Source of the DNA: Phototrophicaceae bacterium
Lineage (GTDB): Bacteria > Chloroflexota > Anaerolineae > Aggregatilineales > Phototrophicaceae
DNA length: 64,000 nt
Direction: 5' to 3'
Assembly (NCBI GenBank): GCA_965237765.1
Contig: OZ250157.1
Coordinates: 1,295,508-1,359,507 of the forward strand
Below the pieces are notes generated by a model that saw nothing but the letters and a program-made list of their open reading frames with translations, searched no databases and had not been told where the DNA came from. The position numbers were made by a program, and so were the translations under genes. Positions 1 to 55,373 of this stretch are shown here, piece by piece (the first letter of the stretch is position 1; the number at the start of each line of letters is the position of its first letter).

Positions 1-893
1 TCGACGATGAAAGCCGCGTGCAGGGTGGGCAGCAGGTCAGCCGCTTCCGGCGCCGTGAGCGCGTCTTCCGGCCGCGGCTCGCGCAGGATGTGCTCGATTT
101 CGGCGCGCAGGCGGCTGCCGCTGAGGCGGGCCAGGATCGGTAACGATTCCTGCGCCCAGCGGGCCGTCTCTTCCTCCCAGCGCAGGCCGAGGCGGGCCGC
201 CAGCCGCAAACCGCGCAGGATGCGCGTCGGGTCGTCGCGGAAGCTGGCCGGGTGCAGGGCGCGCAGGCGTCGCTCTTGCAGGTCGCGCTGGCCGCCGCAA
301 GGGTCGAGCAGCTGCCCGAAGGCCGGCGGCGGGCTGAGCTGCAGGGCGAGCGCGTTGACGCTGAAATCGCGCCGCCAGAGGTCCTCTTCGGCCGTGCCGG
401 GGTAGGGCTGGGGCAGCTGGCCGGGGCGCGGGTAACGTTCGCGGCGCGCGTTGGCGAAATCGACCGCGATGTTCTCTATCGCCGCGATGTTCTCTATCGC
501 CGCGATGTTCTCTATCGCCGCGATGTTCTCTATCGCCGCGATGCCGCTCGGTGCCAGCCACTGCGCGGTGCCGAAGCGGGCGTGGGTTCGCAGCTCGCCG
601 CCGAGATCGGCCTGGAGGGCGCGGGCGAATTGGATGGCATCCTGGAGCGAAGGGCCGGCCAGCATCAGGTCCAGCTCATTTCCAGGATAGCCGAGCAGCC
701 AATCACGCACCACACCACCGACGAGGTAAAGGGGGCGCGTGCCGGCACTTCGCGGCCGTAAGAAGCGCGTGCCGGCACTTCGCGGCCGTAAGAAGCGCAC
801 GTCGGCGCGGGCGACGATCTCGAAGAGGAGGGCGGCGCGCTCCGGGCCGAGCTGCTGGCGAGCCTGGGCGTGGGTGAAGGTAGGGGTGATCAT
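1..893 (-). CDS. tRNA nucleotidyltransferase (CCA-adding) / poly(A) polymerase family protein; 3' end runs off the window
   Basis: Own minus-strand translation from ATG at 893..891: MITPTF...LYLVGGVVRDWLLG...FGTAQW...VDFANARRERY...RRDFSVNALA...FRDDPTRILRGLRLAARLG. Not in the supplied track because there is no stop in the window. Carries two in-frame repeat insertions (737-796 and 466-545). Confidence 0.8.
   Translation of the reverse strand, partial: MITPTFTHAQARQQLGPERAALLFEIVARADVRFLRPRSAGTRFLRPRSAGTRPLYLVGGVVRDWLLGYPGNELDLMLAGPSLQDAIQFARALQADLGGELRTHARFGTAQWLAPSGIAAIENIAAIENIAAIENIAAIENIAVDFANARRERYPRPGQLPQPYPGTAEEDLWRRDFSVNALALQLSPPPAFGQLLDPCGGQRDLQERRLRALHPASFRDDPTRILRGLRLAARLGLRWEEETARWAQESLPILARLSGSRLRAEIEHILREPRPEDALTAPEAADLLPTLHAAFIV
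466..545. repeat. 18-bp tandem repeat GCGATGTTCTCTATCGCC, about 4.4 copies, in-frame inside the CCA-enzyme gene (IAAIEN x4)
   Basis: Perfect units at 466-483, 484-501, 502-519 and 520-537, plus a partial unit. The unit has inverted ends GCGAT...ATCGC. Confidence 0.95.
737..796 (+). repeat. Dispersed 30-nt repeat, 2 tandem units (C:G variant), inside the CCA-enzyme gene
   Basis: GCGTGCCGGCACTTCGCGGCCGTAAGAAGC x2. Read on the gene strand as RFLRPRSAGT x2, directly before LYLVGGVVRD. Confidence 0.95.
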
Positions 894-1020
894 GGGGTTA
901 GGATAGCGGGCGATGCGTTGCATCGCAGGCCGGCGCTTTGTGACTGCAGTCGCCGTCGAGAAAAGGGTCAAAGAGCGCATGTTACAATGTGGCCGCGGCC
1001 AGCAATGGATGGGGGCCACT

Positions 1021-1560
1021 ATGGACGAACCGAGGCAAGAATTCAACCAGGCGAAAGCCCTGGCGGTCGTCCTGTATCTGGCGATTCGCACCCCTCGTCC
1101 CAGCTTCATGAGCATCGCCAAACTGATGTACTTCGCGGACAAAACCCATCTGGAGCGCTATGGCCGCCTGATCAGCAGCGATCACTATGTCGCCAGGCAA
1201 CACGGGCCGGTGCCGAGCAACACCTACCAACTGATGCGCGACTCCGGAATCTACAGCCCATATGGCTTTAAGGTCGTCGACGATTACTTCATCGAGGCGA
1301 TTGACGCCCCGGACCTGGGCGAACTGGCGGACCAGGAGGTCCAATGCCTGGATGAGATCATCGCGCGTTTCGGCGACGCGCCTACCTGGTACCTGCAGCA
1401 ACTGAGTCAGGATCGCGCCTGGCAGCGCGCCTGGCAGGGTGGGCAGGAGCAGGGCGAAGCGAGCCACCCGATTCCCGAAGCGGAGCTGCTCCGCATGTTG
1501 TTCGCGGACCAGGGCGAGCAATGGCCGTCCTTTATCCAGGAACTCCGGGACAACCTTTAA
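1021..1560 (+). CDS. Panacea/DUF4065 (SocA/GepA-like) domain protein, putative antitoxin
   Basis: IAKLMYFADKTHLERYGRLISSDHYVARQHGPVPSNTY matches the DUF4065 core as I remember it. The track ORF starts at 913, and ATG 1021 (MDEPRQEF) is my preferred start. Confidence 0.6.
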   Translation: MDEPRQEFNQAKALAVVLYLAIRTPRPSFMSIAKLMYFADKTHLERYGRLISSDHYVARQHGPVPSNTYQLMRDSGIYSPYGFKVVDDYFIEAIDAPDLGELADQEVQCLDEIIARFGDAPTWYLQQLSQDRAWQRAWQGGQEQGEASHPIPEAELLRMLFADQGEQWPSFIQELRDNL

Positions 1561-1976
1561 TGCCCCTCCGCGAGGCAAAAGCCTGGCGTGTCTTCCGTTA
1601 CCAGAATCCGGACGACGAACCGGATGGAGCGTTGATTCTCGCCTTGTGGGTGGCAAGTGACACCATCCATGGAGTCAGGATCCATGCCAAACCGGCGAGG
1701 ATCAAGCCCTTGCAGGAAAGCGAGACGCTCCTCACGCTGGATTTCCTGCCACGACCGCTGGCTTACATCCGTTTCGACACGCTATTCAGCGGCAGCTTCG
1801 AAGCGTTCACCTCGAGCGACCAGGAGAAGAATTGGGTGGTCACGGGCCGCGCGCGCTATCAGGTGCTGGCCAAAGCCCTCAGTCCCGAATCGCGCTTATC
1901 GGGCAGAGTGAAAGGACTTTTGCGGCAGGAAAACCTCGCGTTCTTGAACCATTGGGCGAAGCGATTGCGGCTCTAA
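1560..1976 (+). CDS. Hypothetical protein, candidate toxin partner of the Panacea-domain protein
   Basis: ATG at 1560 overlaps the upstream TAA (TAATG). The 138 aa contain no motif I recognise. The 3' end overlaps the convergent methyltransferase gene by 4 nt. Confidence 0.45.
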   Translation: MPLREAKAWRVFRYQNPDDEPDGALILALWVASDTIHGVRIHAKPARIKPLQESETLLTLDFLPRPLAYIRFDTLFSGSFEAFTSSDQEKNWVVTGRARYQVLAKALSPESRLSGRVKGLLRQENLAFLNHWAKRLRL

Positions 1977-4541: not shown

Positions 4542-5939
4542 ATGAAGCGCGAGCCGGCACTTCGCGGCGCGAGCGGGCACTTCGCCGCCGTAAGAAGCCG
4601 TAAGAAGCGCGGGTGTGGCGGCTGCGTGCTGCTGTTGCTGCTCGTCGCGCTGGCGGTGGCGGTCTACCTGTTGGTGGCACGCAGCGAGGTGTCGTCCTTG
4701 CGCTGGCGGGTGGCGCTGCTCGGTCAGGGGGAGGCGCTGAACCGGCCGGCGGGCGCGGATGACACGCCGGTGCGCGTCCTGCTCCGCCCCGGGCAGAGCG
4801 CGCCGAGCCTGGCGGCGGCCTTGGCGGCAGCCGAGCTGATCCATTCCGAGCGCCTCTTCCTCGCCCATTTGCGCGCGGAGGGGTTGGATCGGCAGCTGGT
4901 CGCCGGCGAATACTACCTGGATTCGACGCGGAGCATCGTGGCGGTCGCGGCGGCGCTCGGCGCGCTCGGCAGCAGCCCCTTCCCGTATCCGTCCCTGGTC
5001 GCGCAGGACGCGGGGTCGCGCGTTCGCTTCACGGTGGCGGCGAGGGAGACGGTGGCGGGCATCGGTCAGCGCCTGCTCACGGCGGGTGTCATCGACGATG
5101 CGGCTTTCTTCGAGCGTTATGTGGCGCGCAATGGACTGGCGGCGGAAATCCAGCCGGCCATCTATTTCTTCTCACCCGCGCAGCATATTGGCGAGATCGC
5201 CCAGCGCCTGACGGACGCGGCCGCCAGCGTGATCCCGCTGCAGATCATGCCGGGGATGCGGCTGGAGGAGATCGCGCGCGCGCTGGATGAGAGCGCGCAC
5301 CCCTTCGCCTTCCGCGGCGCCGATTTCCTTTACTTAGTGGGGCAGGGCGCGGTGGTTGCGCCGGAATTTCGCGCGTTCGCCCAGTTGCCCACCGGCGCCT
5401 CGCTGGAGGGATTCTTCCTGCCGCAATTCCACCGCCTCAGCCCCGATATCAGCGCGCAGGAGCTGCGCGATCTACTGTTGGAGGCCTTCCCGCAGGCGCT
5501 GGCCGAGACGCCGCTGCCGGAAGAGGCGGCCGCGCAGGGCTGGACGATATACGAAGCGGTTACGCTGGCCGCGATTGTAGAGCGCGAGGCGATTTTCCCG
5601 GAGGAGTTTGCGGCGATCGCGGGGGTATACCGCAATCGGCTGGTGAACCGCTGGCGGTTGGAGGCAGACCCGACGGTGCAATACGCCCTGCAGGGCACGC
5701 GCGGGCGCTGGTGGCCGCAGATTTCGCCCGCCGATTACAGCAATGTCGTCTCCCCCTACAACACCTACCTGCAGACGGGCTTGCCGCCGGGGCCGATCGC
5801 CAGCCCGAGCCTGGCGGCCATCGAAGCGGCCCTGCGGCCCGAGCAATCGGATTATTTCTTCTTCCGCGCGCGCTGCGACGGGAGCGGCACCCATGCCTTC
5901 GCGGTTACCTACGAGGAGCACCTGGCGAATGGCTGCTGA
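4542..5939 (+). CDS. mltG: Endolytic murein transglycosylase MltG (YceG-like)
   Basis: YRNRL...LEADPTVQYAL...YNTYLQTGLPPGPIASPS...YFFFRA..GTHAF motifs. N-terminal TM segment. The cytoplasmic tail includes repeat-derived codons (4549-4608). Confidence 0.85.
   Translation: MKREPALRGASGHFAAVRSRKKRGCGGCVLLLLLVALAVAVYLLVARSEVSSLRWRVALLGQGEALNRPAGADDTPVRVLLRPGQSAPSLAAALAAAELIHSERLFLAHLRAEGLDRQLVAGEYYLDSTRSIVAVAAALGALGSSPFPYPSLVAQDAGSRVRFTVAARETVAGIGQRLLTAGVIDDAAFFERYVARNGLAAEIQPAIYFFSPAQHIGEIAQRLTDAAASVIPLQIMPGMRLEEIARALDESAHPFAFRGADFLYLVGQGAVVAPEFRAFAQLPTGASLEGFFLPQFHRLSPDISAQELRDLLLEAFPQALAETPLPEEAAAQGWTIYEAVTLAAIVEREAIFPEEFAAIAGVYRNRLVNRWRLEADPTVQYALQGTRGRWWPQISPADYSNVVSPYNTYLQTGLPPGPIASPSLAAIEAALRPEQSDYFFFRARCDGSGTHAFAVTYEEHLANGC
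4549..4608 (+). repeat. Dispersed repeat: 20-nt module (C:G) + 30-nt unit (G:C) + duplicated 10-nt tail
   Basis: GCGAGCCGGCACTTCGCGGC / GCGAGCGGGCACTTCGCCGCCGTAAGAAGC / CGTAAGAAGC. Confidence 0.9.
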
Positions 5940-5963: not shown

Positions 5964-7622
5964 ATGGCGGCGCTCGCGAGCCTAGTATTCGCAAAGGCGG
6001 ATATCCTGCTTGCGCTACTGCTCTACCCGCTGCTCGGGTGGGTTTACTGGCGTTGGCTGCGGCCGCATTTGCCTGCGCCGGCGCGCTTTCTTTTTTACTC
6101 GCTCCTCGGCGGTCAGCTGTTGTTGCTGGTGGCTTTCGCGGCGACGTTAGAGCAGTACGGTAGTGACCTGCGCTGGTTGTGGCATCTCGATGGCGAATGG
6201 AATATCGTTGCGAGCTTCGCGGCGCTGCAGCTGGCACTCGTAGGTAGCCTGGCGCTGGTGGGCGCCCGGTCGCTATTCCCCCGGGGCGATTGGCGCTATT
6301 GGCTGGCCGTGAGCGTCAGCTTTTACCTGATGGCTGGCTATGAGTATTTATCGATACAAGCGGTGGCTCCTGCGACTATCCTGCGCGCTGTCCTGGGTGG
6401 AAGTGCGTTGGGGTTGGCGCTGGCGACGATCGTATGGTTGCCGCGTGTGGCAGGAGCACAGGCGCGTTTTGGCCGTTGGCTCGTCGCCGGCCTCGCGCTG
6501 AGCGTGTTGGGTGCTGAGATATTGGACCGTTTCGAGAACCTGTGTGTACCAGCGGGCATTTTAGGGGCGACGAAGCGTTGTGTGTGGCTTTTGCCGCTCG
6601 AAGAAGTGGCGGAAAACGCAGGTGCCCTGATCGCTGTGCTGGCGGCGCTGGGGATCACGCTGCATGCCCGGTCGGGCGCGGAATGGCGAGCGGTGGGGAA
6701 GCGTACGCTGGTGGCGCTCGGCCTGGCCGCACTGGTGCTCTACGCATTGGGCTGGCTAATCATGCCGCCGGCCCAACGCATTTTCCTGGATAACCGTCCG
6801 GCGATACTGACCGTACAGGGCGTTGAGCATGATCCTCTGGTCGCGGGAGAGGAGATAAAAATACAAGTTGAGCTAACGGCCCGCAAAGCGTTGCCGGCGC
6901 CGATCGGTTATTCGTTGCAGTTGACCGACTCTTTGAACGGAGAGGTGCTGGCATCTGTAGATCGGTGGTCGAAACGCCGGCCGGAGCGTTGGCCGGTGGA
7001 GGAGGTGGTAGCGCAGGAGCTGACGCTCCATATCCCAGAAGATGCGCCAGTGAACCGCGTGCTCTGGTTGGCGATGAGTCTCTGGTGGCATGATGGCGTG
7101 AATTTTTCGCCGCTGTCTCTTGACGCTGGCGAGTGGCAGCAAGTAACGGAGACACTCGTCAAGATCTCGGAAGTGATCTTGCAGGCGCCGACGGTGGAAG
7201 AGATGGAAGATGTGGGCAATACCTTCGCGACGGGTTTCACCCTTTTGCGCGCGGATTACCCCACTACAGCGCGGGCAGGGGAAGAATTTGCGGTCACTTT
7301 CCATTGGCAAGCGGAAGCGGCTGGGCAAGAAGATTGGCAACAGTTCTTGCATTTCACCCATGAAGAAAGCGGCGCGCTCTGGAATCACGACCAGCCGCCA
7401 CTCGGCGAACGCCTGCCGACGCACCTCTGGTATACGGGATTGGTAGACCAGGAGCGCTGGCAATTCACCCTGCCGGAAGATCTGGCGCCAGGTCGCTATC
7501 AGGTCCACACCGGCCTGTACCGTCTGTCGGATTTGCAGCGCGCGCCGGCCTGGGATGCGGCGGGGTTGCCCTGGCCGGAAGCGAAAGTAGCGCTGGGCAC
7601 GATCGAGATCGTCGCGCCTTGA
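5964..7622 (+). CDS. Integral membrane protein with a large extracytoplasmic C-terminal region
   Basis: Multiple hydrophobic segments in the N-terminal half. The C-terminal module (FAVTFHWQ...LPTHLWYTG...GRYQVHTGLYR) resembles the C-terminus of the DUF2723 protein at 41138-43123. ATG 5964 is preceded by GGGAG. Confidence 0.6.
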   Translation: MAALASLVFAKADILLALLLYPLLGWVYWRWLRPHLPAPARFLFYSLLGGQLLLLVAFAATLEQYGSDLRWLWHLDGEWNIVASFAALQLALVGSLALVGARSLFPRGDWRYWLAVSVSFYLMAGYEYLSIQAVAPATILRAVLGGSALGLALATIVWLPRVAGAQARFGRWLVAGLALSVLGAEILDRFENLCVPAGILGATKRCVWLLPLEEVAENAGALIAVLAALGITLHARSGAEWRAVGKRTLVALGLAALVLYALGWLIMPPAQRIFLDNRPAILTVQGVEHDPLVAGEEIKIQVELTARKALPAPIGYSLQLTDSLNGEVLASVDRWSKRRPERWPVEEVVAQELTLHIPEDAPVNRVLWLAMSLWWHDGVNFSPLSLDAGEWQQVTETLVKISEVILQAPTVEEMEDVGNTFATGFTLLRADYPTTARAGEEFAVTFHWQAEAAGQEDWQQFLHFTHEESGALWNHDQPPLGERLPTHLWYTGLVDQERWQFTLPEDLAPGRYQVHTGLYRLSDLQRAPAWDAAGLPWPEAKVALGTIEIVAP

Positions 7623-7723: not shown

Positions 7724-8482
7724 ATGCCCGAAGAATTTGGCGGCTTCCCGGCCGCCAGCCAGCAATTCCTGGCGGAGCTGGCTGCCAACAACCGGCGCGA
7801 ATGGTTTCAGGAGCAGCGCGAGCGCTATCAGCGCGACCTGCTGGCGCCGGCGCAGGCCTTCTGCGTCGCCCTTGGTGAGCAGCTGCAAGCGATTGCGCCC
7901 GGCATCCGCTATGACCCGCGCGCGAATGGACAAGGCTCGCTGCTGCGCATCCAACGCGACACGCGCTTCTTACGGCCGCGAAGTGCCGGCACGCGCTTCA
8001 GCCGCGACAAATCGCCCTATAAGACCGTCGTCGGCATACTCTTTTGGGAAGGGCCGGGCAAGAAGATGGCACATCCCGCTTTCGGCTTTGAGTTGAGCGC
8101 GGCCGGCGCGCGCATGATGGCGGGCATGTTCGCCTTCGATAAAACGATGCTCGCCGCCTACCGCGCCGCCGTCGCTGATAGCCAGCGCGGTGCTGAATTG
8201 GAGAGGGCCATCGCCGCCCTGCGCGCCGCCGGCGAATATGAAATCAGGGGCGAGCGATACGCGCGGGTGCCGGCGGGGTATGCGGCCGACCACCCGCGCG
8301 CGGATTGGCTGCGCTATAAGAACCTGTACGCCGCTATGCCGCCCATCCCAGCGGCGCTCATCACGACGCCTGAATTGGTGGAGCATTGCCGCGTGCTCTG
8401 TGAAGGGGCGGCGCCCTTATTCGCCTGGCTGGTAGCGCTACAGTCGGGTACGGAAAATCATTTCATCGTAGGAGGTGGCTGA
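7724..8482 (+). CDS. DUF2461 (TIGR02453) family protein
   Basis: FGGFPAASQQFLAELAANNRREWFQEQRERY and RDTRF..SRDKSPYKT motifs. A 30-nt repeat (7965-7994) splits the RDxRFSxDKxPYK motif. Confidence 0.75.
   Translation: MPEEFGGFPAASQQFLAELAANNRREWFQEQRERYQRDLLAPAQAFCVALGEQLQAIAPGIRYDPRANGQGSLLRIQRDTRFLRPRSAGTRFSRDKSPYKTVVGILFWEGPGKKMAHPAFGFELSAAGARMMAGMFAFDKTMLAAYRAAVADSQRGAELERAIAALRAAGEYEIRGERYARVPAGYAADHPRADWLRYKNLYAAMPPIPAALITTPELVEHCRVLCEGAAPLFAWLVALQSGTENHFIVGGG
7965..7994 (-). repeat. Dispersed 30-nt repeat, single unit (C:G), in-frame inside the DUF2461 gene
   Basis: GCTTCTTACGGCCGCGAAGTGCCGGCACGC, flanked on both sides by ACGCGCTTC. Confidence 0.95.
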
Positions 8483-10311: not shown

Positions 10312-10396
10312 CGGAGAGGGTGGGATTCGAACCCACGACGGCTTTCGCCGTACTCGCTCTCCAAGCGAGCGCATTAGGCCTCTATGCTACCTCTCC
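10312..10396 (-). tRNA. tRNA-Ser (anticodon GGA)
   Basis: Hand-folded cloverleaf: acceptor GGAGAGG/CCTCTCC, anticodon stem CTCGC/GCGAG with loop TTGGAGA, long variable arm CGGC-GAAA-GCCG, T-arm GTGGG-TTCGAAT-CCCAC. No encoded CCA. Confidence 0.9.
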
Positions 10397-10479
10397 GTGA
10401 GCATTCGAGCATCGAATGCTGGAGCAATCTAGTGTCGATTGCCTCGCCATATTAGCAATGAGGCCACCACCGCGCTAGC

Positions 10480-10597
10480 GCGTGCTGGCACCATGCAGCC
10501 GTAAGAAGCGCGTGCTGGCACCATGCAGCCGTAAGAAGCGCGTGTTGGCACTTCGCAGCGCGAGCTGGCACTTCGCAGCCGCAAGACGCCGTAAGAC
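10480..10597 (+). repeat. Dispersed repeat array, 4 modules (all T:A variant), between tRNA-Ser and the CMD-like gene
   Basis: Two 30-nt units GCGTGCTGGCACCATGCAGCCGTAAGAAGC, one 20-nt module, and one module with two CAA-type tails. Confidence 0.9.
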
Positions 10598-11669: not shown

Positions 11670-11684
11670 GGGGGGGGGGGGGGG
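11670..11684. repeat. Homopolymeric G15 tract
   Basis: Counted directly. It lies in a duplicated copy of the CMD-gene 3' end, where the original copy has G6 (11215-11220). Confidence 0.95.
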
Positions 11685-13404: not shown

Positions 13405-14784
13405 TTATCCCGAAATCGTCTCGTAGATCAGCGGCGGCGGGTCAGCACGGGTCTCGCCGATGGTGAAAGGCGAGCCGGTCGAATCGTGCGAGTTTGAGGA
13501 AGCGCTCCCTTCCCCACCGGAGAGCATCCGGCGCGCCGCGGCCAGCTGCCCTTCATCGTTGGCGTGTATTGTCAACAACGGTGCGCCTTTTTCCACCATA
13601 TCGCCCAGCTCCGCGCGCATCACCAGGCCGACGGCGGGGTCGATCACATCTTCTTTGCGCAGGCGGCCGGCGCCCAGCGCGGTGCAGGCGCGCCCGAGCA
13701 CAGGCGCATCGATCGCGTTCAGGTAGCCGCTGGCGGGGGCGGGGAAATCCTCGCGCAGGCGTGCCTGGGGCAGGCGGTGCATGTCCTCTAGCTGGCGCGG
13801 GTCGCCGCCCTGGGCGGCCACCAACTGCTGCAATTTCTCGAAGGCGCTGCCATCAGCCAGGCGCGCTTCCAGCTCGGCGCGCGCATCTTCTGGGCTTACT
13901 TTGCGCGCTTCTTGCGGCCGCGAAGTGCCGGCACGCGCCAGTTGCAACATAGCGGCGGCGACGATGAGGCAATGTTCGCGCAGGCGGGTGGGCGGATTGT
14001 GGCACAGGGTGCGGCAGGCCTCGGCCACCTCTAGCGCGTTGCCGACGGCGCGGCCGAGTGGCTGGTTCATGTCGGCGATTAAGGCGACCATATCGCGCCC
14101 GGCGGCGTGCCCGACGGCCACCATCTCCTGGGCGAGCTGACGCGCCTCGGCATATTCGGCGGTGAACGCGCCACTGCCCACTTTGACATCCAGCACGATG
14201 CCCTGTGCGCCGCCGGCCAGCTTTTTGCTCATGATGCTGGCGGCAATCAGGGGGATGCTGTTGACGGTAGCCGTCACGTCACGCAGGGCGTAGAACTTGC
14301 CATCGGCCGGCGCGAGGTCGGCGCTTTGTCCGGCGAGGGCGAGGCCGACTTTCTCCACCTGTGCGCGCATCTCCGCCACGCTGAGCTGGTGACGGAAACC
14401 GGTGATCGCTTCGATCTTATCCAGCGTGCCGCCGGAGTGGCCGAGGCCGCGGCCGCTCATCTTGACGACGGGCACGCCACAGGCGGCCACCAGCGGCAGA
14501 ACGACCAGCGTGGTCGTATCGCCCAGGCCGCCGGAAGAATGTTTATCGACGGCGTAGGGGAGCAGGTCGGACCAATCCAGCTGCTCACCGGAGGCGGCCA
14601 TGGCGGTGGTGAGGGCAGCAGTCTCGGCGCTGGTCATGCCGCGCAGGAAGACGGCCATGAGGAAGGCGGCGGCCTGGTAATCGGGCAGCTCGTCACGCGC
14701 GTAGGCCTGCACGAAATGGGAGATTTCGCTATCGCTGAGGGGGTGGCCATCGCGCTTGCGGGCGATGATATCGGTGGCTTGCAT
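13405..14784 (-). CDS. Thymidine / pyrimidine-nucleoside phosphorylase
   Basis: IIARKRDGHPLSDSEISHFV...AAFLMAVFLRGMT...DKHSSGGLGDTT...SGRGLGHSGGTLDK. Contains a 30-nt repeat insertion (ARAGTSRPQE). Confidence 0.9.
   Translation of the reverse strand: MQATDIIARKRDGHPLSDSEISHFVQAYARDELPDYQAAAFLMAVFLRGMTSAETAALTTAMAASGEQLDWSDLLPYAVDKHSSGGLGDTTTLVVLPLVAACGVPVVKMSGRGLGHSGGTLDKIEAITGFRHQLSVAEMRAQVEKVGLALAGQSADLAPADGKFYALRDVTATVNSIPLIAASIMSKKLAGGAQGIVLDVKVGSGAFTAEYAEARQLAQEMVAVGHAAGRDMVALIADMNQPLGRAVGNALEVAEACRTLCHNPPTRLREHCLIVAAAMLQLARAGTSRPQEARKVSPEDARAELEARLADGSAFEKLQQLVAAQGGDPRQLEDMHRLPQARLREDFPAPASGYLNAIDAPVLGRACTALGAGRLRKEDVIDPAVGLVMRAELGDMVEKGAPLLTIHANDEGQLAAARRMLSGGEGSASSNSHDSTGSPFTIGETRADPPPLIYETISG
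13907..13936 (-). repeat. Dispersed 30-nt repeat (C:G) in-frame in the phosphorylase gene, tail variant CAA instead of TAA
   Basis: GCTTCTTGCGGCCGCGAAGTGCCGGCACGC. The gene reads it in the one repeat frame that normally contains TAA. Confidence 0.95.
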
Positions 14785-14847
14785 GGGAGGTATCCGTGGC
14801 TGAGTTGCGTAGGATTGTTAATGATAGCGCGAGTCGGAATTTGCGGC

Positions 14848-14923
14848 GCGTGCTGGCACTTCGCAGCCGTAAGAAGCGCGAGCGATGTCCTTTATCGCCC
14901 GGCACTTCGCAGCCGCAAGAAGC
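14848..14923 (+). repeat. Dispersed repeat: one intact unit (T:A) plus one unit interrupted by a copy of the 18-bp element
   Basis: GCGTGCTGGCACTTCGCAGCCGTAAGAAGC, then GCGAG-[GCGATGTCCTTTATCGCC overlapping]-CGGCACTTCGCAGCCGCAAGAAGC. The 18-mer at 14882-14899 matches the 466-545 unit at 16 of 18 positions. Confidence 0.9.
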
Positions 14924-32106: not shown

Positions 32107-32131
32107 TCCGCGCTAGCGGAAATGCGCCGCA

Positions 32132-33136: not shown

Positions 33137-33173
33137 CTATACCTACTCCTTTGTGGGATTAATCCGGACGGAC

Positions 33174-34304: not shown

Positions 34305-34353
34305 GGAGCTCCCTTTCTTGCGAAGTTACCTATTACTTCGCCAGTCTTCCAGA

Positions 34354-36590: not shown

Positions 36591-36654
36591 CTCGCTGGCG
36601 CGAATTATACTCGGGCACAGCGGGTGGCCGCAAACGAGAGGGGCGGGAGGATTT

Positions 36655-37701: not shown

Positions 37702-37737
37702 GTGCGGTCGCCGACCGACGACGACTGAGCAGTCGCC

Positions 37738-39953: not shown

Positions 39954-39971
39954 GGCTGTTTTGCAACCGCA

Positions 39972-41030
39972 TCAACCGGGGCGGGTGCCGTGGCCGGTCT
40001 GCGTGCCGCCGGTTTCCGTGGTGATACCGACCTCGCCTTGGTGGCGCAGCTCTTCGCGCACGAATTCGCCGTTCTCCATGATGTGGATGTCATCCACCCA
40101 GTAGCTGTTGTTGAGGCAGGGGAAATCGATATGCGAATTGGTGAGGGTAGTGGCGCCTTTGAAGATGCCGATGTTGGAGCCGAAGGCGATCTGCATGTTG
40201 GCGTACATGCACTCGTTATCCTGCCCGGGGATGAGCCAATTGGCGCGCTTCTCGCAACCCCAGCCGACGTGGGCGATGCGGTAGGAATCTTCCGAATTGA
40301 ATTGCGCGAACCAGCGCTTGAGCAGTTCGGCTTGCATGCCGCCTTTGATGCTGGTGATGCGGCCGTCTTCCATTTCCAGATGGACGGTATCGTGAACGTA
40401 TTGATTGAGTACGAGCATGTAATCACCCGGGGAAAGCACGAGGACACCGCCGCCTTTGTGCTCTTCCGGCGCGCAGCAGACCATCCCGCTCGGCCAGATA
40501 TCCCAACGGCCGGGGACGTCAGAGACGCTGTAGATGCCCATCGGGTCGCGCCCTTCTTTATGGAAGGTGAGGTCCGTGCCGCCGGGGGAAGTGATGCGCA
40601 TGGTGCTGGCGGCCTGCATGAGTTTTTGGCCGGCGAGGACGCGCTCTTTCAGTTCGGTCGTGGGGAAGAGGCGGCGCATGGTGTTGACGGGCACGCCGAT
40701 GCGCTGCAGGCGCGTGTTGGCTTCGATGGCATCGCGCATGATGGTGCCGTAGGCGTGTGGCCCGGAGGAGACATCGATGACCAGGTCGGCGCGCCTCCAG
40801 GCGTCGACGACCGCTGTTTCTTCGCGGTTGGGGTGCACGATCTGGAAGACATCGGCGCCGAGCTGAATCGCGGCACCCATGTAGGCGGCGGCGTAGTGGG
40901 GATAGCTGCCCGGGTCGGTATGGATGAGGACATGTTCGCCGGGTTGCACCTGGCATAGTTCGAGGTGACTCCGGAACATCTCCACCAATTGCGTGCTCGC
41001 CGCGTAATTCAGAGCCAGCCGTTCTACCAT
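39972..41030 (-). CDS. NicX-like protein, paralog 3
   Basis: DVPGRWDIWPSG, IAHVGWG and SHIDFPCLN..YWVDD. Confidence 0.65.
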   Translation of the reverse strand: MVERLALNYAASTQLVEMFRSHLELCQVQPGEHVLIHTDPGSYPHYAAAYMGAAIQLGADVFQIVHPNREETAVVDAWRRADLVIDVSSGPHAYGTIMRDAIEANTRLQRIGVPVNTMRRLFPTTELKERVLAGQKLMQAASTMRITSPGGTDLTFHKEGRDPMGIYSVSDVPGRWDIWPSGMVCCAPEEHKGGGVLVLSPGDYMLVLNQYVHDTVHLEMEDGRITSIKGGMQAELLKRWFAQFNSEDSYRIAHVGWGCEKRANWLIPGQDNECMYANMQIAFGSNIGIFKGATTLTNSHIDFPCLNNSYWVDDIHIMENGEFVREELRHQGEVGITTETGGTQTGHGTRPG

Positions 41031-43559: not shown

Positions 43560-43638
43560 TGGGGTCGTACAGGTTCTAGATTCATAGCCAGAATGTAACC
43601 CACGGCGCGCGTATGGTCTATATCATCGCGTTGCGCGC

Positions 43639-43845
43639 TCATAAGAATCGCTTCACCAGGGCCAGCGCCCTCTGCTTCCAGGGTTGGCGATGACCGATGC
43701 CCGCGCCGCCTGCGAATTGCGCCCGGTTTGTCACGAACCAATCGTAATTCCGGATCAGGGCCTCGCGGTTGGAATAACGCGGCGCGTAGCCCAGGCGCTC
43801 CTCGGCGTCGCTATCACCTGTAGCGGCCGCTATTTCGGTAGCCAT
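43639..43845 (-). pseudogene. 3' fragment of an NAD-dependent epimerase gene (diverged duplicate of the 3' end of 45843-47009)
   Basis: [54 protein letters not shown] aligns with [54 protein letters not shown]. Confidence 0.6.
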
Positions 43846-43975
43846 AGTAAAATATAGCGCAGGCGTGTGCTGAGGCGAAATTCTTCATGGAATACCCTAT
43901 CCAGCCCGATTCCCTGTACTATGGCGATTGTCGCGAAGCGGTTGCCGCGAAAGGAAAAGTCATGCCGAGCGCGCT

Positions 43976-44003
43976 CTCTTACGGCTGCAAGTGCCAGCAC
44001 GCG
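43976..44003 (-). repeat. Dispersed repeat copy (T:A), slightly degenerate
   Basis: CTCTTACGGCTGCAAGTGCCAGCACGC. Confidence 0.85.
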
Positions 44004-44004
44004 C

Positions 44005-44245
44005 ATGGCGGGGGATCTGGGTTTTCGCGTGGTTGTCGTGGCGGACGCCACCGCCGCGCACGAGGCATACAGCTATGATGGCCGTCCGACCCAATGGGGT
44101 CGGCACTACTCGGCGCAGACGGTGCACGAGGTGGCGCTCTCTTACGGCTGCGAAGTGCCAGCACGCGCTGGCGAACCTGAACGGGGAATTCGCCACCATC
44201 CAGACGACCGAGCAGCTGATCGCGGCGGTGGGCGACTTCGGTTGA
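44005..44245 (+). pseudogene. Isochorismatase/cysteine-hydrolase family 3' fragment, frame broken by a 31-nt repeat insertion
   Basis: GDLGFRVVVVADATAAH...TVHEVAL | repeat | ANLNGEFATIQTTEQLIAAV. The two halves lie in different frames. Confidence 0.5.
44135..44166 (-). repeat. Dispersed repeat copy (T:A); the net insertion is 31 nt
   Basis: GCTCTCTTACGGCTGCGAAGTGCCAGCACGC, bracketed by GCGCT. Confidence 0.9.
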
Positions 44246-44319
44246 CAGCGCCCTTTCGGTGTGAATCGTATGGGTGTTTATTTCGGAGGGGAAGTCGTAG
44301 AGTCTATTTCCAAGCGCCT

Positions 44320-44955
44320 CTAATTCCGAGACTCGTATTCCTGCAAGTAATCGATCGCATTTTGTAAGTGATTCTCCCCATTCTTAAAACGCCCTAAACC
44401 GGTGTTACATGAATCGCAAATGATTCCTCTTGGTTGTCGACGCTCTTGATCATGATCCACCACTAAATTAGCGGTCACATTGGCAATCGTTATCTTTCGA
44501 CATACCGGACATTGCCAACAATCGCCCTTATCTGGTGCGCCAACGGATTCTTTGAATCTTACTTTAACTCTGGTGGAGAGAGGTGGCCCGCTTTCCAACT
44601 CATAACATTCTTTACAGCGTGGTCGTGTAATTGGACCGAGGCGGTTATTTTGGTTTAATGGAAATTCACTTAAGCTTTTTAGCCGATGGCAAGATAAACA
44701 TATCTTTGGATCTGTTCGCGGGCCACTGGTAGTAGGGTCAAAAGTCTCAATATCCTCATTGTTGACTAGATACTCCCTTTGTTTCCCTAGAATAAACACA
44801 ACACTGCGTTGCGAGCCAACTTTAACACGGTAACCGATTGACATCGCACCAAAATTTTCTGGCGGATTTATCCCAGGTCGACGATTATCATTTGGCCAAC
44901 CTAGTCCATTTCTGATGAGTACGCAGTCCTCACGCTGAAAGAGGCTCAATGTCAC
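44320..44955 (-). CDS. Putative restriction endonuclease with a His-Me finger (endonuclease VII / HNH-like) domain
   Basis: VVDHDQERRQPRGIICDSCNTGLGRFKNG matches the EndoVII-type DHDxxxGxxRGxLCxxCN motif. Low GC. 4-nt overlap with the upstream methyltransferase gene. Confidence 0.6.
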   Translation of the reverse strand: MTLSLFQREDCVLIRNGLGWPNDNRRPGINPPENFGAMSIGYRVKVGSQRSVVFILGKQREYLVNNEDIETFDPTTSGPRTDPKICLSCHRLKSLSEFPLNQNNRLGPITRPRCKECYELESGPPLSTRVKVRFKESVGAPDKGDCWQCPVCRKITIANVTANLVVDHDQERRQPRGIICDSCNTGLGRFKNGENHLQNAIDYLQEYESRN

Positions 44956-45830
44956 AGTAAAAATTTCCTCAACCGTTTCTCTGCTATGTCAATATACTCA
45001 CTCGCAATATCAATTCCGATGTATCGTCGTTTGTTCAGCATCGCCATTTTGCAAGTTGTGCCTGAGCCGCACATCGGATCCAGGACGATTTCCCCGGGGT
45101 TGCTCCAGGATAAGATATGATCCTCAGCCAACCGTTCTGGGAATACGGCCGGATGCTGGAAGGCGATCTTATCCCTTGTCGTCCCGCCAAGACCTACCGC
45201 ATAAGACCAGATATTGGTGAGAGTCTTCTCCCGTTTCAGCATGGCACGCCGTTTCTTATTGATACCATCCGGCAATTTGTTGTGTGTTAACATCTCTTCA
45301 CCGCTGCGCACTGTCGGCGCTTTCAGCGGGTTGAACGTCTTGGGCGGGCCACCCTTCGAAAGCACCACCATCAATTCGTAAGCATTGGTGTAGGCGTTTG
45401 AGCGCATAAATGGTGTGTTCTTCTTTTGGTATATCATCACATCATGGACTGTAAAACCAATTTCTTGAAAATGAATGGCTTGCCGGAAACTCGTTAGTGT
45501 GCGGCCACCATTGATTTTGTCTCCTACAACCCATACAACGACACCACCTTTTTTGGTGACACGGAATAGCTCAGCAGCAATACCTTCGAAGTCAAATTGA
45601 TAACCCTCATAATTTCGCAATGTGTCGTAGGGTGGTGACGTTACCGTCAAATCAATGCAATTATCCGACCAGCGTGACATAACATCCACACAATTGCCGT
45701 GATAAAGTGTATCGACTGAAAAAACCCTTTTACGCTTAATTTTCGCTGGGGATGAAATGACTGTACTTACCATAGTTGGCCACCCCAATATGATTGCTTG
45801 TATACTTGTTCTATAAATAATATACAACAA
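44952..45830 (-). CDS. DNA methyltransferase, beta-class, probably N4-cytosine (SPPY)
   Basis: Motif IV is LTVTSPPYDT and motif I is LDPMCGSGTTCKMAMLNKRRYIGIDI. Low GC. Confidence 0.85.
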   Translation of the reverse strand: MLYIIYRTSIQAIILGWPTMVSTVISSPAKIKRKRVFSVDTLYHGNCVDVMSRWSDNCIDLTVTSPPYDTLRNYEGYQFDFEGIAAELFRVTKKGGVVVWVVGDKINGGRTLTSFRQAIHFQEIGFTVHDVMIYQKKNTPFMRSNAYTNAYELMVVLSKGGPPKTFNPLKAPTVRSGEEMLTHNKLPDGINKKRRAMLKREKTLTNIWSYAVGLGGTTRDKIAFQHPAVFPERLAEDHILSWSNPGEIVLDPMCGSGTTCKMAMLNKRRYIGIDIASEYIDIAEKRLRKFLL

Positions 45831-45842
45831 TTACATAGTTTC

Positions 45843-47009
45843 TCAAAAAAACCGCTTCGCCAGCGCCAAGGCCCCCTGCTTCCACGGCTGGCGGTGGCCG
45901 ACACCGGCACCACCCTCGAATTCGGCGCGATTCGCCACGTACCAATCGTAATTGCGAATCAAGGCATCGCGGTTCGAATAACGCGGCGCGAAGCCCAGGC
46001 GCTCCTCGGCGCGGGCGATGCTGATGAAGGAATCCTTGGCCACGGTCTCATACACCCATTTGTAGAGCGGCGAAAGCCCCAGCTTCTCCAGCGCGCGCAG
46101 GGTCCAGATCGCCGGCATGACCGGCAGGGAGCGGACGCGCTTCCCGTGCCCCGCGTGGTCGAGCAGGGCCTGGAAATCCTCACGCACGGTGCCGAATTCG
46201 CGGGCGCCGATGTTGAAGGTCGCCTCGGCCCGTTCACGCGGCAAGGTCGCGCAGAGCCAGATGGCCACGCAAAGGTCTTCGACATCCAGATATTGGTAGC
46301 GGTTGCGCCCATTGCCGAGGATGGGGAAGCCATGGCCATCGGCGGCCCATTCGTAGAGCAGGGCGAAGACGCCGAGGCGCTCTTTGCCGATGAAGGTCTT
46401 GGGGCGGAGGATGGGCACGACGAAGCCTTCGTCCCGCGCAGCGCGCGCCAGCTTTTCCGCCTCGATCTTCGCTTCGCCATAAGGGCCGACGCCGACGAGT
46501 GGGTCGCCTTCGTGCAGCGGGTGGTGGTCGGGGATGCCATAGACGGCCGTGCTGGAAATGTGCACGATGCGTTGGCAGCCGGCGCGGCGTGCTTCTTCCA
46601 GGACGCGGCGCGTGCCTTCGATTTCGGTGGAGAAGATGTCGGCGCGCGAGTACAGGGGCAGGGCGGCGGCGCAGTGGACGACGATATCGACCCCCGCCAG
46701 CGCGGCGCGCAGATCCTCCCGCCGCCGGATGTCGCCCGTGAAGATGGTGACACGTTCCCGTTCTGGATAATCGAAGGGCGCGATGTCTAACGAGGCGACG
46801 TGTTGCCCGCGCGCGAGTAGGTAACGGGCCAGGTTGATGCCCAGGAAACCGGCGCCGCCAGTGATGAGGAAGCGCGTGCGGGCACTTCGCCGCCGTAAGA
46901 AGCGCGTGCGGGCACTTCGCCGCCGTAAGAAGCGCGTGCGGGCACTTCGCCGCCGTAAGAAGCGCCGCGCTGTTTCCGCCGCATCGGCCGGCTCTCCGTT
47001 AACTGGCAT
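45843..47009 (-). CDS. NAD-dependent epimerase/dehydratase with three repeat units in its N-terminus
   Basis: [17 protein letters not shown] Rossmann motif, preceded by [10 protein letters not shown] x3. No in-frame start lies between the repeats and the Rossmann motif. Confidence 0.85.
46874..46963 (+). repeat. Dispersed 30-nt repeat, 3 perfect tandem units (G:C variant)
   Basis: GCGTGCGGGCACTTCGCCGCCGTAAGAAGC x3. Confidence 0.95.
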
Positions 47010-48240
47010 AGTTCGGCCCGAAGAGCTGGCTCATCAGTTGCCACATCAACAATTGATCCGGCACGAGCACGTGCTGGCCATCTTCGGGGCGGACCCAGTC
47101 AGTTACGTAAGGCGCTCGGAGCACGGCGGTCTCGATATTCTCCGCGGAAAAATCCTTGAGGTACCAGGCGAGAGAAACCATATCATCCAGATCCAGGTTG
47201 GTATACAGGGAATCGCGCAGGTTGGCGAGCAGGCTGGGGATGCGGGCCAGCAAGACAGGCAACAGGCGCAAGCGCTGGATGCGCTCACGCAGGGCGAAGA
47301 GCACCTGTTGTTGGCGGGCGGAGCGTTGCATATCGCTGCCGCCATGGCGCGTGCGCGCGAATTTCAGCGCGTCTTCGCCATCCAGATGATGGGCGCCGGC
47401 CGAGAGGTAAAAGGGGTCGTAGCCGCGGTAAAGGTCCGGGTAGGCGGGGTCGTCGATGGCTTCTTCGAGGATGACGTCGATGCCGCCCACGGCATCCACC
47501 AGGGCGATGAAAGCCGAGAAATCCAGCAGAGCGTAAGCGTGCACGCGGATGCCCAGGTTGGCCTGCACGGTCTGGAGCAGCAAAGTGGGCCCATAGCCCC
47601 GCCACTGGGTCTCGCCGAAGAAAAGGGCCGCGTTGAGGCGTTGCTCTTCGTAGTTGGGGATGTGGACGTACAAATCACGCGGGAGGCTGAGGATGCCGAT
47701 GCGCTCGCTTTCGGGGTCGATGCTGATGAGCATCATGGAATCGGTGCGGAAAGCGAGGCCGCCCTCGTCGGGCCGGCGGTCGATACCAGCGACGAGCAGG
47801 GTGAAGCGCGAGCGGCCATCCCAGGCTTGCAGGGCGATTTCGCGGCCATCGTCCAGGGTGAGGAGGGGCGGCGGCGCTGCTGCGTCGAACGTGGCGGAGC
47901 TATCGCCGCCGGTGGGTAAGACGCGCACACCGAGGACGGGCGTGGGCATGGCAGCGGCGACCTGGATGGCCGGCGCGGCGGCCGGCGTGATGTCTGAGGG
48001 CGCGCGTTCCAACCGCGTGACGAATAGGGCGAGGGCGCCGAGGGCCAGGATGGCGAGGATGAGCGCCGCGCCCGCCACAGCGAGTAGCAGGGCGGCATGC
48101 CAGAGGCGGAAGCGCGTGCGGGCACTTCGCCGCCGGCGGCGGACGAGCTTTCGGGCGGCTGGCTGCACGCTATACTCGGCGGCGCGTGCGGGCACTTTGC
48201 CGCCGTAAGAAGCGCGCGCCGATGAGGCGGGAGGTGTCAT
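46999..48240 (-). CDS. LCP (LytR-CpsA-Psr) family protein
   Basis: [30 protein letters not shown]...[13 protein letters not shown]-terminal TM segment. The cytoplasmic tail contains repeat-derived codons. Confidence 0.85.
48114..48213 (+). repeat. Two dispersed-repeat copies (G:C): a truncated one at 48114-48134 and a full one at 48184-48213
   Basis: GCGTGCGGGCACTTCGCCGCC and GCGTGCGGGCACTTTGCCGCCGTAAGAAGC. Confidence 0.9.
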
Positions 48241-52156: not shown

Positions 52157-52186
52157 GCTTCTTACGGCTGCGGAGTGCCAGCATGC
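52157..52186 (-). repeat. Dispersed 30-nt repeat, single copy (T:A), just upstream of the Nfu_N-like gene
   Basis: GCTTCTTACGGCTGCGGAGTGCCAGCATGC. Confidence 0.9.
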
Positions 52187-52206
52187 GCTTTGCTACAATG
52201 CCGGCC

Positions 52207-53727: not shown

Positions 53728-54342
53728 TTAGCGCGGCGTTGTGGTGGCTTCCGGCCAGGGGGCGCCGGTGTAGTGGTCGCGCAGGCCCTGGCGCTCAGCG
53801 AATTGGCGCCAGAGGGCGGCGCGCCTTTGTTGAAAGTGGGCGATGGCGGGCGCATCCAGATCCAGGCGCATGGTGAAAGCGTCTTCTGAATCGGCGTAAT
53901 AACGCGGGCGGCGCTCGGTGATGGCGAAGCCATTTTTGCGGTAGAGCGCCTGAGCGATGAGGTTGGAAACACGAACTTCCAACACGATATAGCTGGCGTC
54001 TGCGGTCAACGCGCGTTGGATGAGCGCTGTGAGCAGCAGTTCGCCCCAGCGCTCCCCGCGCTCGCTCGGCTGCACGGCCAGCGTGCTGATATGCCCCTCG
54101 TCTTCGATGACCCAGAGTCCGCCATAGCCGCCGGGTTGGGCGGGGGTATGGCGGCGCCGGAGCCGCCAGGGCCGCCATTCTTGCCAGCCGCGCTCGCTAG
54201 GCTGGGGCGAGGAGCTTTCCAGGATGAGCATGTAGGAATAATTGGAAGTGCAGACTTCGTGGCGGAAGGCGGACGCCGACCAGGGGGTGGCGAAGGAGAG
54301 GCGGTCGAGGGCGACGACGGCCGGGATGTCGGCGGCGACCAT
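53728..54342 (-). CDS. rimI: Ribosomal-protein-alanine N-acetyltransferase RimI
   Basis: MVAADIPAVVALDRLSFATPWSASAFRHEV...LAVQPSERGERWGELLL...LEVRVSNLIAQALYRKNGF. The ORF stays open upstream to 54591 through the repeat array, and the conservative start ATG 54342 is used. Confidence 0.8.
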   Translation of the reverse strand: MVAADIPAVVALDRLSFATPWSASAFRHEVCTSNYSYMLILESSSPQPSERGWQEWRPWRLRRRHTPAQPGGYGGLWVIEDEGHISTLAVQPSERGERWGELLLTALIQRALTADASYIVLEVRVSNLIAQALYRKNGFAITERRPRYYADSEDAFTMRLDLDAPAIAHFQQRRAALWRQFAERQGLRDHYTGAPWPEATTTPR

Positions 54343-54358
54343 CGGGCGGAGGGCGAGG

Positions 54359-54578
54359 GCGTGCTGGCACTTCGCAGCGCGTGCGGGCACTTCGCCGCCG
54401 TAAGAAGCGCGTGCGGGCACTTCGCCGCCGTAAGAAGCGCGTGCGGGCACTTCGCCGCCGTAAGAAGCCGCAAGACGCCGTAAGAAGCGCGTGCCGGCAC
54501 TTCGCGGCTGTAAGAAGCGCGTGCCGGCACTTCGCGGCGCGTGCTGGCACTTCGCAGCCGCAAGACGCCGTAAGAAGC
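54359..54578 (+). repeat. Largest dispersed-repeat array: 7 hairpin modules with all three variants, plus duplicated tails (220 bp)
   Basis: Units at 54359-78 (T:A), 54379-408, 54409-38 and 54439-68 (G:C). Tails at 54469-88. Then 54489-518 and 54519-38 (C:G) and 54539-78 (T:A). No spacers. Confidence 0.95.
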
Positions 54579-54587
54579 GCGCGTCAC

Positions 54588-55373
54588 TCACCCGACCGTC
54601 TCCTCAGCCGCGTAGATGGGCCGGATTGCCTCGGGCGGAAAGGCCAGGCGAGGCTCCTGCCCGGCCGCCATTGCTGCTCGCAGGCGTTGCCAGGCTAGCT
54701 CGGCCAGGTAGCCCGCGCGCCGCAGGTTCGCCGCTGGCGGGTAGCGATAGGGCCGCGCTTCGTCGATGCCCGCGTCCGCGTCGCTCATCGCCGCCATATC
54801 CCACTCGCCGATGAGGGCGTCATCGGCTGTGCAGCGGGCGCGCAGCTCCGCGCCGGTCAGCCGCAGCAAGGGGCCGTCCTCGCGCCAGGTGCCCGCTCGC
54901 CACAGGTAGCAGCGCGCGTAGAGGCGCCCTCGCCCCGCCGGCACGACCGCCCAGAGCCGCCCCGCGCGCGCGCCGCAAGACGCCACCAGCGCCGCGTGCG
55001 CGCCGATACCCACTAGCGGCAGGCCGCGCGCCTCTTGCGTCTTGCGGCTTCTTACGGCGGCGAAGTGCCCGCACGCGCTGCGAAGTGCCAGCACGCGCTG
55101 CGAAGTGCCAGCACGCGCCTCAGCCAGGCCCTGCGCCAGCCCAATGCCGCTGCGCAGCCCTGTATATGAGCCGGGGCCGAGCGAAACAGCCAGCGCGCCC
55201 AGCGCCGGGGCGCCGCCGAAAGCCGCCAGGCTGCGCGCCACGGCCGGCGCCAATTGCGTGGTCGGTTGCCGCGCGGCGCGCCAGCTGTGCTCGGCCAGGA
55301 GCGCTGCGCCATCATGCAGGGCGAAGCTGAGCGTATCGCCCGCCGTATCCAGCGCGAGGAGCAGCCCGTTCAT
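54588..55373 (-). CDS. tsaB: tRNA threonylcarbamoyladenosine biosynthesis protein TsaB, carrying an 87-nt repeat insertion
   Basis: LLLALDTAGDTLSFAL...GPGSYTGLRSGIGLAQGLAEA-[29 aa]-RGLPLVGI. Confidence 0.85.
   Translation of the reverse strand: MNGLLLALDTAGDTLSFALHDGAALLAEHSWRAARQPTTQLAPAVARSLAAFGGAPALGALAVSLGPGSYTGLRSGIGLAQGLAEARAGTSQRVLALRSACGHFAAVRSRKTQEARGLPLVGIGAHAALVASCGARAGRLWAVVPAGRGRLYARCYLWRAGTWREDGPLLRLTGAELRARCTADDALIGEWDMAAMSDADAGIDEARPYRYPPAANLRRAGYLAELAWQRLRAAMAAGQEPRLAFPPEAIRPIYAAEETVG
55027..55113 (-). repeat. Dispersed repeat: 3 modules (20+20+30 nt plus CAA-type tails) in-frame in tsaB
   Basis: Period of 87 nt between identical CGCGCCTC at 55027-55034 and 55114-55121. Encodes [29 protein letters not shown]. 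Confidence 0.95.

Follow-up and report, generated by a model that had tools for sequence, protein, structure and literature searches.

A 30-nucleotide modular repeat of narrow distribution inserted in frame in conserved genes of a Chloroflexota bacterium

We analysed a 64,000-nucleotide (nt) stretch of contig OZ250157.1 of a Phototrophicaceae bacterium (Chloroflexota), called the window below, in which a 30-nt repeat recurs both inside and between unrelated genes. At least eight of its loci lie within functional coding sequence, where the copies are always free of stop codons and have a total length that is a multiple of three. Comparison with close relatives and with solved structures identifies these copies as insertions, and the repeat has so far a very narrow, lineage-restricted distribution. 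We favour, with modest confidence, the view that it is a dispersed modular minisatellite confined to one lineage, which templates its own spread, is filtered by selection and acts as a tiny non-autonomous mobile sequence.

The repeat is composed of module A (GCGCGTGCNGGCACTTCGCN, 20 nt) and module B (GCCGTAAGAA, 10 nt). The usual form is the 30-nt A-B unit; A-A, B-B and A-A-B-B orders also occur. In the window, which has a G+C content of 63%, module A is present in 28 copies at ≤2 mismatches against 0.04 expected from dinucleotide shuffles, and the repeat as a whole occupies 919 nt at ~16 loci (0.25 loci per kb) on both strands. The copies within working genes (strand of the repeat given first) are as follows.

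735–794, + strand: class II tRNA nucleotidyltransferase gene (− strand, start codon at 893, running off the start of the window); A-B-A-B, 60 nt.
4547–4606, + strand: mltG/YceG (+ strand, ATG at 4542); A-A-B-B, 60 nt directly behind codon 3, within the cytoplasmic tail that precedes the membrane helix.
7967–7996, − strand: DUF2461 gene (7724–8482, + strand); a single A-B, 30 nt, splitting the conserved RDTRFSxDK motif.
13909–13938, − strand: pyrimidine-nucleoside/thymidine phosphorylase gene (13405–14784, − strand); a single 30-nt unit.
27085–27114, − strand: luciferase-like, Mer-related oxidoreductase gene (26420–27448, + strand); a degenerate in-frame unit encoding SYGRKGTARA.
46872–46961, + strand: NAD-dependent epimerase gene (45843–47009, − strand); three A-B units, 90 nt, forming an N-terminal extension.
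48112–48211, + strand: LCP (LytR-CpsA-Psr) protein gene (46999–48240, − strand); two segments, A alone and then A-B.
55032–55118 (approximate), − strand: tsaB (54588–55373, − strand); 87 nt, A A A B B' and a 7-nt partial B.

These copies encode either N-terminal tails or segments between secondary-structure elements. In the tRNA nucleotidyltransferase, labelled a CCA enzyme in the first-pass annotation and having A-adding enzymes as its best structural relatives, RFLRPRSAGT is inserted twice between helix 1 and the LYLVGGVVRD strand. One 10-residue peptide is repeated three times directly ahead of ITGGAGFLG in the epimerase, the LCP segments are read in two frames within the cytoplasmic N-terminal tail, and the phosphorylase copy is translated in the frame that contains the stop codon, with TAA changed to CAA, giving ARAGTSRPQE. 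The TsaB insert lies between the GLAQGLAEA helix and the LPLVGIG strand, and its three consecutive 20-nt A modules are translated in three different frames. The first-pass annotation had reported the inserts in the nucleotidyltransferase (60 nt), DUF2461 (30 nt), phosphorylase (30 nt), tsaB (87 nt) and epimerase (90 nt) genes, the three-frame reading of tsaB with its in-frame sum, and repeat-derived codons in the mltG and LCP tails; we find all of them. It lacked the oxidoreductase copy, a 220-nt array in an open reading frame (ORF) entering rimI, and a scar at 43976–44004, the latter two described below.

We compared these genes with those of relatives sharing 79–99% protein identity with the window (L-numbered contigs and P-numbered orthologues). 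DUF2461 has either no segment or 10 extra residues; it is filled in the window and in L001, and empty in the 99%-identical orthologue P0001 and in L002–L004, where the site reads ACGCGCTTC. At one site in tsaB, an allelic series runs from the empty protein of 232 residues (site GAGGCGCA) through +10, +12, +20 and +29 (the window) to +30 residues. The nucleotidyltransferase has zero, one and two units before LYLVGGVVRD in L002, L003 and the window, respectively, and in relatives it shows independent insertions at three further sites, in other frames. mltG is empty in L002 and L003 at GAAGCGCG, contains 60 nt in the window and L004 and 90 nt in L001, and has the identical ATG throughout. The epimerase carries one unit in L007–L010 and L012 and three in the window, and the LCP tail has one extra unit in L007 and a different arrangement in L008, all of them in frame with the membrane helix.

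The phosphorylase copy is fixed in the clade (present in five of five strains), and is recognised as an extra loop of nine residues relative to solved structures of pyrimidine-nucleoside phosphorylase (PyNP; PDB 7m7k and 1brw). SYGRKGTARA, similarly, is a 10-residue insertion relative to Mer structures (PDB 1f07 and 8qq8). Indeed, solved PyNP, Mer, YeaZ and A-adding enzyme structures all have gaps exactly at the insert positions. Judged by these alignments, the genic copies are insertions, not ancestral residues, for every gene named in the first-pass annotation: close and distant orthologues exist without them or with shorter alleles, and the inserts fall in gaps between structure-aligned blocks, modelled as low-confidence loops. 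The head domain of the tRNA nucleotidyltransferase also contains a separate 18-nt tandem repeat (459–543, 4.7 copies), which adds AIENIA four times (24 residues); this insert is absent in relatives, which read SGIAVDFANARRE, and falls exactly between residues 95 and 96 of PDB 3h37.

The genes that carry the repeat are not pseudogenes. After removal of the insert columns, the ratio of nonsynonymous to synonymous substitution rates (dN/dS) between strains was 0.11–0.18 for the epimerase, DUF2461, phosphorylase, mltG and LCP genes, 0.29 for the tRNA nucleotidyltransferase and 0.29–0.49 for tsaB (0.26 for the neighbouring tsaE); by this measure the host genes are under purifying selection. AlphaFold2 models of DUF2461 and TsaB have an intact or confident core, from which the insert emerges as a segment with a predicted local distance difference test (pLDDT) score <50, a loop in the case of DUF2461. 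The N-terminal repeats, furthermore, are translated and not upstream of the true starts, on the evidence of the start codons. Alleles of mltG with and without the insert share one start codon; beyond the repeat, mltG and LCP offer in-frame starts only at or inside the membrane helix, so that their use would drop the N-terminal tail; and in the epimerase there are no start codons between the repeat and the Rossmann strand. All the conditions that the first-pass annotation had named as refuting its reading came out in favour of that reading. The modules measure 10 and 20 nt, and being in frame describes which insertions survive selection and is not a property of the insertion process. Isolated 1-nt frameshifts are present in mltG of two low-coverage relatives (5–8x), in L001 at ~20100–20160 (reverse strand) and in L004 at ~7150–7200, in both at a distance from the repeats. 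Assembly error is their probable cause, and they call for caution in arguments about frame that rely on a single contig.

The empty alleles reveal the target. Every site for which an empty allele is available already matches the junction between B and A of the unit (GAAGCGCG) over 6–10 bases.

mltG, empty site: GAAGCGCG.
DUF2461, empty site: GAAGCGCGT, 9–10 nt.
tsaB, empty site: GAGGCGCA.
tRNA nucleotidyltransferase site 3, empty site: GAAGCGC (other strand GCGCTTC, on both sides).

After insertion, the junction sequence is found on both sides of the new unit. The short direct repeats around the inserts that the first-pass annotation had described, and had offered to explain as a target-site duplication or as microhomology, are present, with a target that is not arbitrary: all match the junction, and the flanking repeats read as homology to the end of the unit itself. 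Homology-guided insertion and site-specific duplication leave the same pattern of flanks that always match GAAGCGCG. We counted 29 repeat-associated indels between strains, mostly of 10, 20, 30 or 60 nt, and there are new copies that are present in one strain and absent from relatives that are 95–99% identical.

Copies of the repeat also mediate loss of DNA, as seen at an isochorismatase gene of which the window keeps a remnant.

44138–44168, − strand: C-terminal end of the isochorismatase remnant; a 31-nt copy (B with one extra base) that shifts the frame.
43976–44004, − strand: isochorismatase deletion scar; a hybrid repeat copy.

The first-pass annotation had noted an out-of-frame 31-nt copy in a decayed gene, and this is the copy that shifts the frame of the C-terminal remnant. 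It is common to the window and L012, and its removal restores ...HEVALANLNGEFATIQTTEQ. With 70 residues, the remnant fragment has the weak Pfam match that is to be expected (E = 0.0014, under the gathering score). We compared positions 43560–44400 of the window with 1481–2600 of L012, whose protein (P0265) keeps the full-length isochorismatase with repeats after codon 5, in the middle of the gene, at the 31-nt site and close to the stop. In the window ~440 nt are missing, comprising the N-terminal two thirds of the gene, and both end points are within repeat copies, which identifies the loss, from the sequences of the two alleles, as recombination between two copies. In alleles P0264 and P0266 the middle of the gene is gone between two other repeat sites. 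The repeat is, thus, tolerated in some genes and yet drives deletions.

Next to the FUR gene, the 3' end of the epimerase gene is present as a 170-nt duplicate (43638–43807 versus 45842–46011, 81% identity), and in the distant relative L011 LCP is followed directly by FUR; because of these two observations, the block of epimerase, methylase/endonuclease and isochorismatase genes has the look of an inserted island. At 16229–18895 and 44320–45830, restriction-modification genes (MmeI-like, N6_N4 methylases and a His-Me/Endonuclease VII protein) vary in presence, fusion and splitting at the same positions among L001–L004 and L007–L010.

The repeat is also found between genes; in its arrays, superunits of 30 nt ([A B]) and of 60 nt ([B' B A A]) are visible.

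10477–10597, + strand: between a tRNA gene (10312–10396, − strand) and a small CMD-like gene; A B A B A A B' B'.
14846–14921, + strand: between the start of the phosphorylase gene and the stop of a terminase-like gene; A-B and a degenerate copy.
52159–52188, − strand: intergenic, just upstream of an Nfu_N-domain gene; a degenerate single unit, conserved in L007 and L009.
54357–54576, + strand: separating the tsaB stop from the conserved rimI (GNAT) start; a 220-nt array.
61665–61753, + strand: between the divergent P450 (− strand) and dinB/IMS (+ strand) genes; a degenerate array.

The array at 10477–10597, which the tRNA gene immediately adjoins, is shorter in L002–L004, and the locus at 14846–14921 has one further 30-nt unit in the same three relatives. 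The conserved start of the P450 gene (MNPRARQFPLGD) is downstream of the array at 61665–61753. The tsaB-rimI array differs in length in every strain. Read on the gene strand, it lies inside an ORF that begins at a GTG overlapping the tsaB stop and continues into rimI, and the distance from this GTG to the rimI ATG is 249, 264, 339 or 489 nt, all divisible by three, and 248 nt in one strain. The ORF is, thus, in frame in four of five alleles (p ~0.045), which is suggestive of translation or coupling. Superunits of 30 and 60 nt make up most of the arrays, however; they keep the frame automatically and could also account for it, so that the conserved frame does not amount to proof of translation. 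At 54340–54591 (− strand) of the window and in L007–L010, gene callers lengthen rimI from the GTG by 80–160 repeat-encoded residues; in the repeat-free L011, rimI starts 33 nt after tsaB with the N-terminus LAPLTLRPM.

Two further features of the window were noted. A run of 15 G at 11670–11684, where relatives differ in their gene calls (DUF1801, hydrolase), may be a real variable tract or a weak point of the assembly. A paralogous gene cluster at 28463–41030 comprises, besides repeated segments (families D7, D12, D17 and D20), three M24 peptidase/creatinase-like genes, and is free of copies of the 30-nt repeat over ~15 kb.

We then considered the properties of the unit itself. The first-pass annotation had pointed out that it is open in five of the six frames. 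The count is correct and typical of such a base composition, since at least five frames are open in 68% of shuffles of the same 30 bases, and we discarded openness as a special property. Copies within genes use all six frames; together with the three frames of the A modules in tsaB, this argues that no particular peptide is under selection. The unit is not palindromic, and its single-stranded DNA folds are weaker than those of shuffled controls (z = +1.0 to +1.8 for three variants on both strands), so that a stable palindrome or hairpin was rejected. Covariation backs a 4-bp stem only. Positions 9 and 20, numbered on A, covary in Watson-Crick fashion (C-G 53, T-A 53, G-C 35, other 9) with a mutual information of 0.74 bit, the strongest of any non-adjacent pair (the next is 0.21 bit), and the neighbouring pair 8/21 shows C-G, T-A and T.G. 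The stem suggested by covariation pairs positions 7–10 with 19–22, and the changes at both pairs indicate that it likely matters in single-stranded form. Units of the 'G...A' type exist too, and are amplified in some arrays. No match to Rfam was obtained at the gathering score for the whole window, nor at E≤1 for 54250–55200, which covers the tsaB-rimI array and the tsaB insert. We found no paper containing the sequence of the unit.

The repeat is restricted to a narrow lineage. Among 185,579 GTDB species representatives there was one weak match, and no match was found in JGI metagenomes, IMG/VR, plasmids or phages; a shorter repeat pattern gave chance matches only, without the B module. A worldwide search for repeat-encoded peptides returned no more than 19 representative protein clusters and 112 word candidates; the majority were rimI extensions, ORFs made up of the array alone and isochorismatase alleles, in a census where hosts of a single unit score too low for recovery. 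Exact protein matches lead to near-identical DNA on ENA long-read metagenome contigs, of which L006 is 99.96% identical to the window; L008, a repeat-bearing relative, is on a circular contig of 2.67 Mb. The nearest named relatives of DUF2461 (a cluster ~81% identical) are metagenome-assembled genomes (MAGs) of Chloroflexota/Anaerolineaceae. In the distant relative L011 (~70% TsaB identity) 20.7 kb contained no copy.

How the copies spread may be envisaged as follows, if the repeat is the self-templating minisatellite that we favour. New loci would be seeded by microhomology-primed copying of units already present, in which a strand ending in the junction motif would pair with a copy elsewhere, copy one or more units and return. 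Each inserted unit would recreate the target on both sides, so that arrays would tend to grow. The 4-bp hairpin (7–10/19–22) may promote stalling and slippage, and slippage and unequal recombination would then change the copy number. Existing copies do grow and shrink between strains by modules of 10, 20, 30 and 60 nt. Selection would remove copies that shift the frame, contain stops or disrupt the structure, and only in-frame copies would be seen in working genes because the others have been lost. The genes that were called or scanned, in the window and in ~150 kb of related loci, include no mobile-element enzyme, whether RAYT/Y1, HUH or of another type.

Several observations weigh against this scheme. 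The insertion step has never been observed, and the donor copy is not identifiable. Templated insertion at 6–10 nt of homology is normally rare, and microhomology alone does not explain ~0.25 loci per kb for one sequence. About 17–20 GAAGCGCG sites in the window are unoccupied, which means that targeting is inefficient or that most events are lost. Simple slippage does not account for the Watson-Crick covariation, which suggests recognition of a single-stranded hairpin, a feature seen more typically in elements driven by an enzyme. This hairpin is predicted to be weak, with single-stranded folds less stable than those of shuffles. A trans-acting gene is possible elsewhere, the scan having covered ~6% of one genome's worth of sequence.

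It is conceivable, as the main alternative, though we consider it unlikely, that a nuclease of the HUH/Y1 type (IS200/IS605- or RAYT-like) or another site-specific enzyme reads the hairpin together with GAAGCGCG and moves or copies 30-nt units, with arrays forming since the unit ends in its own target. Such an enzyme would fit a target that is the element's own end, as in IS200/IS605-type elements, the covariation at 9/20 (with some at 8/21) and the very narrow lineage restriction. It would have to work with a stem of only 4 bp, whose folds are weaker than shuffles, and on a unit shorter than any described mobile element; slippage is the better match for 10- and 20-nt modules that come and go independently, and no gene for it was seen in the sequence scanned. 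Rather more speculatively, the unit may be the smallest known mobile DNA, a payload of ~22 nt with an 8-nt end that recreates its own target, either moved single-stranded by a dedicated putative enzyme reading the 4-bp hairpin or synthesised on an RNA or DNA template by a GAAGCGCG-primed polymerase; it would then seed and extend arrays inside genes essential to a free-living bacterium whose genome measures 2.7 Mb.

We find it improbable that the repeat is a selected DNA or RNA signal, for instance one bound by a nucleoid or regulatory protein, or one that serves as a spacer in translational coupling, with its presence in genes reflecting overprinting kept by selection. The very high sequence conservation of the copies, the 9/20 covariation, the 10-nt phasing of the modules and the location of several copies at gene starts and operon junctions, including the ORF that enters rimI in four of five alleles, would all agree with a signal. 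Presence and number of copies, however, vary among strains that are 95–99% identical, both orientations and all frames are used, copies mediate gene deletion and Rfam gives no match; frame retention of the rimI array can follow from its superunits alone.

Two last possibilities can be set aside as close to inconceivable. The idea that the proteins had these segments ancestrally, or gained them by separate local duplications, was spoken for only by the open reading frames themselves, and is refuted by the empty alleles: orthologues at 79–99% identity and solved structures lack the segments, and identical 30-nt DNA recurs both between genes and, read in different frames, within genes that are unrelated. 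An artefact of assembly or sequencing (adapter-like sequence or long-read error), for which the 1-nt frameshifts of low-coverage relatives might be cited, is refuted by recurrence of the repeat in independent assemblies (from five or more ENA samples, plus a separate GTDB MAG of short-read style), and the copies are in frame, polymorphic by modules and bounded by junction homology.

Among known systems, the first-pass annotation had likened the repeat to Rickettsia palindromic elements (RPEs), dispersed repeats of non-coding origin that often lie in frame in unrelated metabolic and housekeeping genes and add a peptide segment compatible with the fold (PMC10969869, PMC3184786). The likeness holds for behaviour, that is, in-frame insertion into unrelated protein-coding genes whose orthologues lack the insert. 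It fails for length, palindromic structure and tandem arrays: RPEs are ~100–150 bp long, are palindromic and occur singly, and their families encode a conserved peptide, whereas the unit described here is 30 nt, non-palindromic and modular in 10 and 20 nt, forms tandem arrays of up to ~490 nt, is read in all frames and enters sites that match its own junction. Mycobacterial interspersed repetitive units (MIRU-VNTR) are short GC-rich units that form variable-number tandem arrays at many loci, some of them at gene starts in operons, with a repeat ORF coupled to the flanking genes (PMC12548453, PMC3184786). Tandem arrays at dispersed loci with copy numbers differing between strains are common to both, and at one locus the tsaB-rimI array, with its GTG overlapping the tsaB stop and rimI in frame in four of five alleles, looks similar; most of the other loci are intragenic. 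MIRUs, however, measure 40–100 bp and are mostly intergenic, unlike a 30-nt unit found at eight or more loci in 64 kb inside conserved coding sequence, whose sub-unit modules are gained and lost independently.

Other systems are more remote. Repetitive extragenic palindromic (REP) sequences, with BIME and REPIN forms and RAYT transposases, are GC-rich, 20–40 nt long, present in hundreds of copies per genome and sometimes clustered, and are thought to be mobilised single-stranded via a hairpin. The present repeat shares with them a very short GC-rich sequence. REPs are clear imperfect palindromes with a 5' GTAG and are extragenic, whereas here there is a covarying stem of 4 bp, no GTAG in the unit (module B carries GTAAG), a frequently genic location and direct tandem arrays, and no RAYT gene was seen in the loci scanned. 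Elements of the IS200/IS605 type insert by a short specific sequence that is also found at the element end, have a small hairpin and make no arbitrary target duplication. They are, judging from the junction sequences, possibly a mechanistic analogue only, for a 30-nt unit with no transposase gene known. Transposable elements of the miniature inverted-repeat type (MITEs) have terminal inverted repeats, and none are present in the unit; they also duplicate a target of arbitrary sequence, whereas the direct repeats that flank the inserts here always match GAAGCGCG. In CRISPR arrays, repeats are separated by unique spacers of similar length, whereas the units here follow head to tail with no spacers between them. 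The repeat, thus, acts like RPEs and MIRUs, belongs to neither and extends the theme of small dispersed in-frame repeats.

For its host the repeat carries costs, in frameshifts and in recombination between copies that deletes DNA. Its arrays mislead gene callers into long false N-termini and split genes; they are likely trouble spots for assembly and, at the same time, ready-made markers for strain typing. If an enzyme or templating is behind the targeting of the unit's own junction, this could offer a novel means of placing short sequences at defined sites. The allelic series at tsaB, the tRNA nucleotidyltransferase, mltG, DUF2461 and other genes amount to a natural insertion scan, showing which positions of conserved proteins tolerate 10–30 extra residues. 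In-frame colonisation of genes is not confined to intracellular bacteria: it occurs in an environmental Chloroflexota lineage, by a unit five times shorter than RPEs.

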